From IMG/VR virus record IMGVR_UViG_3300015242_000001: a stretch of DNA of 40,275 nucleotides; one strand, given 5' to 3'. The stretch is from a virus. The notes below the pieces were generated by a model. That model did no database searches, had not been told where the DNA came from, and saw nothing but the letters and a program-made list of their open reading frames with translations. Made by a program: the position numbers and the translations under genes. Positions 29,837-40,275 of the stretch are shown here, one piece after another; the stretch's first letter is position 1; each line of letters opens with the position of its first letter.

Positions 29837-29916
29837 TGACAATTGGGTTTCTCTATTGACAGCAAAAGTATAATTCTGATTCTAATATTACAAAAGTAAC
29901 TGTCATTGGATTGTCA
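29837..29916 (-). promoter_or_regulatory. promoter TTTG-N20-TACTTTTG flanked by four TGACA/TGTCA sites
   Basis: -7 element at 29863-29870, -33 at 29891-29894; TGACA at 29837 and 29857, TGTCA at 29901 and 29912. Confidence 0.65.
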
Positions 29917-36136: not shown

Positions 36137-38484
36137 TACTCCCCAGTAATTTCAGGTGCTAATAAGCCATATCCTCCCCAATCAGTTTTCAATCCAATAT
36201 CTTTATATTTACCTGTATGAGGATTCATAAATTCGGATTCGATTTTTAAAGTGTACCCTCTTGCGTCGCCGTTTATACGTAATCCATCTAATTTATTATT
36301 AAATAACTTTATAACCTGAACGGTGTATCCTATTTCCCTTACCTCCCATTGTTCACTATCAATATCACCGTTACACCAGTCTGTTGCATCTTTATGGGCT
36401 TTAGATTCAATCAGGCGTAGTTTAGAGCTTATTTTTTTGCCATCTGGATTACTTACCCCACATAGTTCAGCTAGTTTTGTAAGGGCTGCGTAATGCCGTT
36501 CTAATTCGTTTTTACGGCGTTCTAATTTAGTAGACATAATAATAAGTTTTACAGTAAAATATCTGTTTTCATTTCCTCAAAATGAAATTCACCCTCCCCA
36601 TCATAGCCTTGTGTTTGTTTAATACTTTTTAACAACTCAAGTTGTACATCACTAATTCGATGATCTTCGTTTTTGGCCCTCCTTACACAAATTTCTATTG
36701 CTCTTTTAGGGGTTGTACCTACTCCTATTAATTCTCTACTGTTATAACTATGCCAAGTATCTGTTTTATATATTAGATATACGCTTTTCATGATATTAAG
36801 ATTTAAAAATCGCTTGTAAATTCCATTTTCCTAGAATATAGACCAGGATCATTATTCTCATTGTATTGTTTGCACCTTTCCCTAGCTTCCTCAATTGTAT
36901 TTACATAGTCTATTTGTGATTTTCTACCTATTTTAGGGATGCGTTGTTTGGTCTTTGGGTCTTTTGCCCACCATGTACGAACAAATATTTGATATTTCAT
37001 AATAATAAGTTTTATGTAAGATTAGCTAAAAATAAAGGCGCTACTTCATCAATGGTTTTACAATAACTACATGGTATCCCCTGATTGTACGAAAAATCTC
37101 TTGGTATAAAACATGCAGGTGTTTTTGCGGTAATTAAATGTTTGTAATCTTGTGCTAAAACCCAGCAATTATGTATTCGTATATAAAGATAATTATCATC
37201 TAATTCCATAATAATAAGTTTTATGTATTAACGAGATTATTTCCTGCCCATATTTTGAAATAAACATTGAACGAAAAGGGGTCATACTTCCTAACTAGTG
37301 TCCCCAACTTATGATTGGCATGGGCAGTATAGATTTTTGACTTTTTTATTTTTCCATTCTTCAAATAACAAAATTGATCATATGCTTCCGACTCAGTATA
37401 CATATCTGTATATAGTTCATTTAGATACTTCTCATATGCAGATTTTGTATTTTTCACAGTAAGGAAAAGTTTATAGTTTATTTTGTGTATCGTCCCATTC
37501 GTTAAAGTTAACTACGGTAGGTCGATAAAACCTTTTAGGATGTGCCCAATCCCCTGCTTTTTTCATCAGCCTTCCATCTTTGATATATGAATCAATAGTC
37601 TCATTCCATGCTTGCCGTAACGCTGGTTTGTCATCTTTTGGGATATTGGGTTCTATTTCAGATTTAAAGAACGCTTCAAATTGTTTCTTGTTCATAAGAA
37701 TTTTTTATAATATTAATAATGAAGGCAATAAAATTAAAACAAACGGCCATATTCCAATACTACTATGTCTAACATTCCTTCATCATTTAATTCAGGCGCC
37801 TTGATACTATATGTTCTATAGATTTGTCTATCTCTAAACGCTTCACACAACTTTTTATAGGAAAAATATTCCTTCTCTTCGAATTCTTTCCTTGACCATG
37901 AACTTTTTTTAGTATTATGATAAGAACAAGCTGCTTTCCAAACACTTTTTAGATTTCCTACAACCCCTAAGATTCCATCGCCTGAGCCTGATATAACAAA
38001 TATTAATTGACCATTTTTCATTTGGTGCTAGTTTTCTGTAATTTGATCTTTCTTTTTTCCCAATACTCCCCCCGTTAATTTAATAATTGTAAAATAGCAA
38101 TCGAAATTAATAATACGATCATCAATATATCTATTACATTAGGCTCCTCGTCCTACGGGTAATGCCAGGCATCACTCATGTTTACAATTTTAATAAATTA
38201 ATAGCTTCTTGTTCTGTGAAATTATTATCGAAGCCGTCCCAGTGAGTAAGAAAACCATATTCCCAATTACATATTGCTCCCTTATCATCATAAACTGGCC
38301 CTTTACATACCTCGAAACAATATCCTTCTCTGTGATAAACCCTTAATTTTTTTATCTGTTGAGCTTCCTCTACTTCATCACTAACATTTATTACATCAAA
38401 CTTTGTTCCCTCTGTATTACTGAATTGTTCAACCAAATCAAACAAGTTTTGTTCAATCGTACTTAACCAATTTTTTGCATCCAT
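36136..38484 (-). CDS. array of small early/host-takeover ORFs (65-133 aa)
   Basis: Eight ORFs, several separated by identical 11-nt spacers. Confidence 0.6.
36538..37220 (-). repeat. repeated 11-nt intergenic spacer AACTTATTATT (36538-48, 37001-11, 37210-20; variant ATCTTAATATC at 36792-802)
   Basis: Each lies exactly between a TAA stop and the next ATG. Confidence 0.8.
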
Positions 38485-38511
38485 AACAATAAATTTAAAA
38501 TATTAATAATA

Positions 38512-39150
38512 TAATCCCTCTGCACACTATGTAATAGGCTCCTGCTCCTGGATAAAGGAATTGAGCAATACTTGTTGCACCTATTACATAGCTCACCCTT
38601 GGGAGGCTGATTAATATCCCTTTCTAACATTTTAAGTTGAGGCTGTCTATTAATCAGGAGGATTGTTTATACCTCTGAGAATGGTGCATTAATAGACAAT
38701 TATTTAGGCTGTAACAGTCGTCAATAACTTACATTTGATGGATCGCTAAACCTCCATACCTATATAATTGTCGTAATATCTTATTTGGAATAATCCGGAT
38801 ATAACGGTATCTTTGCGTTATCAGATGTAAAAATACATAATATACCCGAATGTAATAAACTGTATTATTAAGACACGTTGAATGTGTGCCTTGTCACAGG
38901 GAGTCTATCCCCTGCTACCTTTCCGAACGTGATATAATGCAATTTACTGCTTCGGGTATCCTTGTTACATAGGCTCAGATACTTGCCTTCGTTACTTACT
39001 GGTAACATTCAGACCATGATGCACATAGTTTGGGCGCTTACTGTAATTTCAGCGACGTTAACCACAATTCAGTGATTTCAACCTTTCACACGTTTGATCC
39101 GGTTTCTGTTCCTGTACTTAGTAAGGTACATTGTCTGTTTCAGGATCACG
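38512..39150 (-). ncRNA. putative large (~640 nt) structured ncRNA, family unrecognised
   Basis: No ORF of 60 aa or more in a genome otherwise wall-to-wall coding; many nested inverted repeats (12 bp 38527-38/38580-91; 11 bp 38644-54/38688-98; 9 bp 38842-50/38951-59; 11 bp with one mismatch 38729-39/38820-30). Confidence 0.65.
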
Positions 39151-39153
39151 ATA

Positions 39154-39208
39154 CTAAGGTAAAACTAATACTATTCTAAACCTAATAATTTTTGTCATTT
39201 ATTTGTCA
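39154..39208 (-). promoter_or_regulatory. putative promoter (TTAG-N20-TACCTTAG) with upstream TGACA-N6-TGACA
   Basis: Near-consensus -7/-33 elements; direct repeat TGTCA at 39193 and 39204. Confidence 0.5.
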
Positions 39209-39234
39209 CGATTAACTGATCTTTTACCAGTGTT

Positions 39235-39286
39235 GACTAGGACACGGTTTCCCGTGTTTCGCTGACTTACAGCTCATCGGCTAGTC
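39235..39286 (-). ncRNA. type I hammerhead ribozyme (U4C core variant)
   Basis: Minus strand: GACUAG CCGAUGA GCUG-UAAGU-CAGC GAAA CACGG-GAAA-CCGUG UC CUAGUC; three perfect stems, GAAA core and GUC cleavage triplet. Confidence 0.88.
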
Positions 39287-39441
39287 TTTTAGAAATCTAA
39301 AGGTTATATTATAATAACCCATTTTTTCAAGCAAGGGAACCCATAAAATAGCCTCTTTTTCGGTTTCTACTGCTTTACAGTGATAATTGCTATTGTAATA
39401 AAATTCTAAAATATAGTTTATTGTTCTCATAATAATTAGAT

Positions 39442-39705
39442 TTAAAGGTTATCATTGATGTGCTGAACGATGGCTGTATAAGTGGTTTCCGGGACTGGCT
39501 CCCGTTGTCCTTTGGCAAGGAAAGGGGAAATAAGATACAATTGCACACTATATACGGGTAGTTCATTTGATTTGTCCTTTGTGACAAAGATATGCAGTCC
39601 GTCCGGCGCGTTGTCTGCTATCCAGTCCATGAGTAATTCAAGGGCGTGGGTTTCCTTTGATATAAGGATAGTGTTTTTATTGATAAGATAATATGCTTTG
39701 TTCAT
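39442..39705 (-). CDS. hypothetical protein
   Basis: 87-aa ORF. Confidence 0.55.
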   Translation of the reverse strand: MNKAYYLINKNTILISKETHALELLMDWIADNAPDGLHIFVTKDKSNELPVYSVQLYLISPFLAKGQREPVPETTYTAIVQHINDNL

Positions 39706-40047: not shown

Positions 40048-40275
40048 ACAATGTAGTTTAAAGATTATTCAGCAATAGTAACTTTATAATACCCTTTGGG
40101 ATCAATCCAGTACTTAAAGCCTCCATTGTCACACGTATTGGTTTGTTCTATCAATTCATATGCACAATCAGCTAGTGTCTCCTGCGCTAATGTATAGAAA
40201 AGTCCCTGTAAGGTTGGTTCGTTACGTTGTTCTTTTGCTTCATTGACGGCCTGAAATAACCAGCGCTTGCCCTGC

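Follow-up and report, generated by a model that had tools for sequence, protein, structure and literature searches.

The largest gene-free stretch in this soil phage genome consists of three consecutive modules: a hammerhead ribozyme, an RNA of ~459 nt with its own promoter, and a twister-type element. The locus is real and partly new, comprising one known ribozyme, one uncatalogued variant of the twister type and one lineage-restricted RNA candidate, and it is less unified than was proposed in a prior sequence-only reading. The window (the whole stretch of DNA that was analysed, 40,275 nt) corresponds to the first 40 kb, reverse-complemented, of an 82.6-kb IMG/VR virus record; its final 30 bases (40246-40275) are missing from the matching contig. 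Long genes in the window are all on the minus strand, and the region sits among small early-type genes. As the sequence-only reading had noticed, no other large stretch is free of ORFs: the interval 38485-39389, of 905 nt, is the largest such gap across the entire record. Features are collected in Table 1.

Table 1. Features of the gene-free region and its flanks (window coordinates; all on the minus strand)
Feature	Position	Strand	Basis or detail
87-aa early gene, upstream	39442..39705	-	ORF; homologues of 80-90% identity
Type I hammerhead ribozyme, U4C core variant	39235..39286	-	Fold and relatives
TGACA-N6-TGACA direct repeat	39193..39208	-	Recurrence with the same spacing
Bacteroidota-type promoter	39154..39185	-	-33-like TTAG 39185-39182, 20-nt spacer, -7 box 39161-39154
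~459-nt conserved structured RNA, candidate class	38691..39149	-	Conservation, wobble-compatible changes
Twister-type element, P1 topology with P5	38516..38691	-	Family model and covariation; 176 nt
Twister-type parts	U-1 38691, A+1 38690, A+2 38689, P2 38688-38684/38525-38521	-	
Twister-type P4	38679-38676/38595-38592 and 38606-38605/38597-38596; loop L4 38604-38598	-	
Two hairpin arms inserted in P4	38607..38675	-	Four-way junction
P5 hairpin	38527..38591	-	p 0.99
Twister-type tail GAGGG	38520-38516	-	General-base G at 38520
100-aa gene, downstream	38182..38484	-	ORF; begins 32 nt past the twister-type element

The helicase, primase, RecA-like and virion genes of the record are consistent with a phage, and its DNA polymerase is ~31% identical to those of crAss-like gut phages; "crAss-like" is therefore used here as a loose label. 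The upstream 87-aa gene, a read-through transcript of which would include the hammerhead, has no match in PHROG or Pfam. The downstream 100-aa gene opens a long run of co-oriented genes; 47 distant relatives of it were found, and the RNA is absent beside the two whose context was checked. Relatives of the locus were drawn from runs of two further soil studies, and one of them, L016, served as the principal homologue. It carries a 1.1-kb divergent intergenic region (L016:7709-8842), and because an integrase and host genes (flavoprotein, dehydroquinase) adjoin its sequence (L016:1-8850), this close relative looks like a prophage, and a crAss-like phage of this group may thus be one. A 3031-aa gene without a PHROG match (L337:355-9450) stands in the virion gene block, the usual place in crAss-like phages for genes of injected proteins such as the virion RNA polymerase.

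Everything downstream of the promoter had been read as a single RNA of ~640 nt, a view that comparison with relatives does not sustain. In L016 a 67-aa gene is inserted at ~38691, a third strain has sequence similar to that gene at the same position, and the 3' part is matched alone in more than 100 other phage loci, all of which, among the matches listed, are missing the 5' part. As the L016 gene sits at 38691 and the 3' part occurs alone, the 640-nt stretch is therefore two modules, which these arrangements indicate are adjacent here through absence of the intervening gene, and the uncatalogued RNA shrinks to ~459 nt. The block 39261-38691 is kept in strains of the two further soil studies, amid flanking DNA that is unrelated or less conserved, and one strain that is only ~91% identical has the same boundary.

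The 3' module is a member of a sizeable phage family. A first pattern drawn from it retrieved 41 viral loci, 37 of them true homologues, and a second gave at least 120 matches, the family reaching at least 122 copies in at least 107 phage loci. Its commonest form is compact, with the order N/AA, 5-bp P2, C, a linker of 3-4 nt, P4, a 7-nt loop, P4', the P5 hairpin, P2', GA and GGG. Since the 122-copy parse was selected for P2/P4 pairing, covariation was recounted without selection for pairing; in the 42 cores so parsed, the P4 pairs have 11-21 two-sided changes each and three P2 pairs have 3-4 each. In an alignment of 27 sequences, P2 and P4 are 100% paired, a score reached by 0 of 500 shuffles, with slid controls at 33-48% (kinship inflates these counts). 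Two-sided changes occur in three of the five P2 pairs and five of the six P4 pairs. A family model built without the window copy matches 38508-38698 (36 bits, E 1e-7). The catalytic positions A+1, A+2 and the general-base G are kept in the family: AA follows the cut site in 120 of 122 copies, in the parse that favoured it, and the GAGGG tail is present in 33 of the 37 loci found by the loop pattern alone. Copies are intergenic in 81 of 86 cases, mostly upstream of a gene on the same strand.

The family departs from the twister class at T2. T1 (PK2) is a complementary CCC/GGG that is nearly invariant, and partly fixed by the search patterns, and so shows no covariation. T2 (PK1) can form one invariant C-G pair rather than two, and the neighbouring base covaries as the fifth pair of P2. 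We infer that one T2 pair was traded for this fifth P2 pair, with a loop one base shorter, such that six stacked P2 and T2 pairs are kept. T2 is the element most sensitive to defects, which lower the activity of natural twisters (PMC11662667), and the twister stem P1 is dispensable (PMC6154101); P1 amounts to 2 bp in the window copy, and its pairing in the family is 0.56-0.78 versus 0.40-0.69 in shuffled sequences. P4 of the window copy has a low predicted probability, and the twister secondary structure lies at most 2.9 kcal/mol above the minimum, pseudoknots uncounted. The P4 insert of this copy is a short form of one present in ~31 family members; both arms retain their pairs across 31 insert forms, one pair showing a G-C/A-U exchange, and the arm 38657-38648/38616-38607 has p 0.96. 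The P5 hairpin corresponds to the last helix of the sequence-only reading, and its loop varies freely, being replaced in L016 and across the family. Rfam twister models gave no match to the family, a compact member included, and a search of the literature for its loop and tail sequences returned nothing relevant. Because T2 is reduced and the Rfam models give no score, the element is termed twister-type and is not filed as a member of the class; it is likely to work like a twister, with a predicted cut between 38691 and 38690.

Were the module no longer able to cut, it might persist as a structured repeat, a processing signal or a handle for recombining gene cassettes, and the transcript would stay in one piece of ~640 nt or longer. 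The single T2 pair and the missing Rfam score would fit such a loss, as would the unusual conservation of the P5 sequence, the occurrence of tandem and degenerate copies, and the gain or loss of a gene exactly at the module's 5' edge. We consider it unlikely, since the catalytic positions are all kept in ~120 copies while P4 varies freely, and since the lost T2 pair coincides with the covarying fifth P2 pair and the shortened loop, by which the stack would keep its six pairs; a one-piece transcript is further at odds with the separate occurrence of the two halves.

Other members of the family show further variety. Five loci (L058:9872-10476, L057, L050, L046 and L101) carry tandem arrays and degenerate copies that have a tetraloop instead of the L4 loop and probably do not cut; degenerate copies without loop or tail also exist. 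Copies stand directly upstream of a tRNA gene or within a tRNA cluster in L066 (8440-8883) and L071. A long P4 insert with a conserved internal loop, absent from the window copy, is found in L051 (5720-5983) and ~30 other loci, whose two strands may resemble loop B of the hairpin ribozyme. A pattern scan of GTDB gave mostly chance matches, three loci passing the filter and two of them clearly; intact compact copies lie at L236:1024-1048 and L274:3025-3049, on contigs binned with Sediminibacterium and Phycisphaerales genomes, the former being consistent with a Bacteroidota host.

At the other end of the region, the sequence-only reading had placed a hammerhead at the head of a minus-strand layout, and this is borne out. 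Stems I, II and III form with pair probabilities of 0.96-1.0, stem I being open, and the fold has a z of -3.96. The core (C3 U4 G5 A6 N G8 A9 / G12 A13 A14, the A15-U16 pair and H17) is complete except for U4C. In Rfam the motif gives a weak HH9 match (18.9 bits) below threshold. Its identity is settled by the relatives, because they have a canonical CUGA core and a fully replaced stem II, an unrelated 4-bp stem, together with one extra U; their sequence diverges from the window upstream of 39261. A stem I pair becomes a G-U wobble in one related strain, and L016 does not preserve the complement to loop II that the window copy has in its 3' tail. The motif is, by core and fold, a genuine type I hammerhead for which self-cleavage is predicted, between 39241 and 39240. 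U4C has been described among natural hammerheads; it is slow in vitro but suffices for a viroid (PMC3088659). Between two ORFs of an unrelated GC-rich contig (L203:580-640) we also saw a canonical type I hammerhead whose stem III is identical.

Between hammerhead and RNA, the TGACA-N6-TGACA repeat and the Bacteroidota-like -7 box of the sequence-only reading are both present, and they recur as a unit. The repeat stands 30-31 nt before a -7 box at two further places: window 29916-29863, with a perfect TAnnTTTG as its box, and L016:8739, ahead of the first early gene. The genome holds two such units versus 0.005 expected in shuffles, by a pattern defined after seeing the copies. The single change of the homologue in the repeat lies in its spacer. 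Judged against the Bacteroidota consensus (PMC7366714), and supported by the same-spacing copies at 29916 and in the relative, the promoter appears genuine; no excess of sigma-70 promoters was found. The repeat is probably a transcription-factor site, and transcription would start near 39149. Downstream of the second unit (29916-29840, minus strand) come two inverted TGACA sites, an arrangement that points to a phage regulon; at 12848 there is a looser copy.

The 459-nt stretch that follows is probably a functional structured RNA. In the predicted fold, a cluster of hairpins forms the 5' part, a long irregular helix (38959-38842) encloses a multiloop, and the 3' part is a three-way junction (38772-38695); the last two are its best-predicted parts. 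The junction, whose 14-bp helix 38772-38759/38708-38695 has p 0.99, stops four bases short of the predicted twister cut; in L016 it is followed by a U run. All arms of the helices listed in the sequence-only reading lie where they were placed, although two pairings (38830/38739 and 38698/38654, the latter absent from the homologue) have a probability of ~0 in context, being outcompeted by this 14-bp helix and by the P4 arm given above, neither of which had been listed. The listed GAUCC/GGAUC helix is an alternative to a long-range helix 39102-39097/38800-38795: p is 0.77 in the long transcript and ~0 in the promoter-started one.

Compared with L016, the RNA differs by 11 substitutions in 459 nt (2.4%), versus 79 in 1130 (7.0%) in five shared genes (p 1.7e-4); against the four closer shared genes p is 0.015. 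Five of the 11 keep or improve a predicted pair (four by G-U wobble), three lie in loops, and the other three disrupt pairs that are terminal or alternative. That several G-U pairs work on the minus strand only, as had been suggested, is upheld by the four interchanges of G-U with Watson-Crick pairs, harmless on that strand alone. When the changes are placed at random, more pairs are broken on the minus strand (p 0.039), but this does not hold for the plus strand (p 0.48). An energy-based version of this test was not significant, and a first pairing test at variable sites, with one coordinate off by one, gave p 0.14. Covariation, proposed as a check, is found for the hammerhead and the twister-type module; in the 459-nt part, the homologues are near-identical and hold no compensatory change. 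In comparison with shuffles, the z of -3.1 over 656 nt is equalled on the opposite strand, with -2.5 (minus) and -2.4 (plus) for the 5' part, and 2 of 9 control windows elsewhere in the window reaching -2.6. The RNA is thus predicted to fold modestly better than shuffles, with folding energy that is not strand-specific.

These equal scores, and control windows as low, are what one would expect if the block had no selected RNA structure and were instead a DNA-level element (an origin or protein-binding array) or neutral DNA that recent recombination has kept similar. The promoter part equals the RNA part in conservation, no homologue was found in the searches beyond close relatives, and the high identity of the block could stem from recent transfer. 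On the other hand, only the minus strand can accommodate the wobble interchanges, a 9-nt insertion falls in a linker, no iterons or direct-repeat array were found, a promoter and a ribozyme-type element flank the block, and the ~91% identical strain has the same boundary. A DNA element or neutral block therefore seems to us a rather improbable account.

Searches for more distant homologues of the 459-nt part were negative in GenBank phages, in GTDB, in pattern searches of viral sequences, by blastn in 13 and 36 phage records and by nhmmer on all loci. Two metagenome pattern matches were unrelated save for hammerhead stem III, searches with neighbouring proteins led to none, and two covariance models run on 73 records gave no match, with little power and no positive control. 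One apparent relative, L002, was a chance match. The lack of ROOL, GOLLD, tmRNA or RNase P hallmarks reported in the sequence-only reading is confirmed: ROOL (RF03087) was not matched in Rfam searches, nor in a further model search run without positive control; GOLLD (RF02032, conserved 3' domain) gave no match; and ARAGORN called no tmRNA. Two likenesses seen by eye, one with SRP helix 8 (~38937-38912) and one with RNase P CR-V (~39108-39095), were dropped when the RF00169 and RF00010 models gave no match and detected their positive controls. The Rfam search of window and L016 (gathering and E-value thresholds) gave the sub-threshold hammerhead match and no family for the RNA or the twister-type module. 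A 47-codon ORF from 39008, open in both strains, was rejected as coding, three of its four changes altering the protein. Outside its own locus, the genome has no stretch of 13 nt or longer that matches the RNA in antisense. A hairpin-rich, gene-free region of ~1.3 kb in a RecA-related phage (L084:5500-6900) surrounds a degenerate twister-type copy and bears no relation to this RNA. As far as these searches reach, the RNA occurs in close relatives only; the earlier candidate structured RNA downstream of the promoter survives as a conserved, uncatalogued candidate that is smaller than was thought.

Overall, the best reading, which we hold to be somewhat better than even, is that an early transcript is cut by two ribozymes and releases a lineage-restricted structured RNA. 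The hammerhead would cut transcripts of the upstream small genes at 39241/39240, separating them from what follows, probably slowly in this strain because of U4C, and a regulated Bacteroidota-type promoter would start a second transcript near 39149. Its first ~459 nt would fold into a multi-domain RNA ending in the 14-bp closing helix, and the twister-type element would then cut at 38691/38690, freeing an RNA with a cyclic-phosphate 3' end, of 459 nt from the promoter start or 550 nt from the hammerhead cut. The downstream mRNA would keep the 175-nt twister remnant as a structured leader with a 5'-OH, which ends 32 nt short of the next gene; in relatives, the small gene would be released together with the RNA. 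As to the job of the freed RNA, a stable early RNA binding a host or phage protein as decoy or scaffold is our best guess, offered tentatively. The scaffold, sponge and anti-defence roles suggested in the sequence-only reading are conjectural likewise.

Ranking close behind is a cis-acting 5' leader of the early operon, serving antitermination or translation control, with the put RNA of HK022 and other long leaders as analogues. The region lies directly behind a promoter and ahead of ~38 kb of co-oriented genes, the L016 ORF begins 28 nt past the last helix of the RNA, and no strong terminator was found. Such a leader would, however, be detached from its mRNA by the self-cleavage predicted immediately 3' of it; the downstream gene differs between strains whose RNA is 97.6% identical, and the RNA is several times longer than put-type elements. 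We therefore regard a leader as doubtful, and a DNA element or exchanged block, or a circular RNA, as less likely still. Circularity would require an RNA ligase of host or phage to join the ends of the 550-nt piece 39240-38691 (5'-OH and 2',3'-cyclic phosphate), end chemistries that follow from the orientation of a type I hammerhead and the P1 topology of the twister; a related phage (L200) encodes a protein with an RNA-ligase domain. This we hold improbable, since the internal promoter would yield a 5'-triphosphate form that cannot be circularised in this way, the predicted fold has no helix joining the two ends, and the U4C core is slow in vitro (PMC3088659). Speculative, and on balance unlikely, is the most ambitious reading: the 459-nt module would found an undescribed class of large phage RNAs, would be set free by the hammerhead and an active rearranged twister (5-bp P2, 1-bp T2, four-way junction), and would act on the host in trans, perhaps with a 550-nt circle as a further form.

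Returning to release by two ribozymes, if the twister-type element cuts, its class can do without a pseudoknot pair held to be essential, and Rfam has been blind to a phage family that numbers well over 100 copies. The locus would also offer a natural case for the question of what the self-cleaving ribozymes of phages are for, as they would here define the ends of a non-coding RNA. The RNA itself may be a new large phage RNA, the present evidence for which comes from one small group of related phages.

Each module has a counterpart among known systems. The hammerhead shares with type I hammerheads of phages and prophages (PMC3088659) the three stems, GAAA, the GUC site and an intergenic position among small phage genes; it differs in the U4C core of the window copy, in the extra U before stem II of the relatives, in apparently having no conserved loop II pseudoknot, and in scoring under the Rfam cut-offs. 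With twisters of type P1 and optional P5 (RF03160; PMC6154101; PMC11662667), the 3' module has in common the order N/AA, P2, a P4 loop U-CCC-AA-G, P5, P2', GA and GGG, as well as a potential three-pair T1, A+1, A+2, the general-base G and a weak or dispensable P1. Its 5-bp P2, 1-bp T2, 7-nt L4 closed by a Y-R pair and long P5 with a variable loop set the family apart, as do the two arms that the window copy carries in P4. Like ROOL and GOLLD (PMC12286853), the 459-nt RNA is phage-encoded, several hundred bases long, multi-domain and of unknown function; unlike them, it has ~459 nt, lies in the early region ~40 kb from two tRNA genes, is bracketed by ribozyme-type elements, and has neither demonstrated pseudoknots nor covariation, its homologues being few. 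Ribozymes flanking small phage genes are known, and the locus as a whole resembles the ribozyme-flanked gene blocks of prophages (PMC3088659), in which self-cleaving motifs likewise stand on either side of a variable early-region cassette; here, by contrast, the cargo consists of a promoter and a long non-coding RNA, to which relatives add a small gene.
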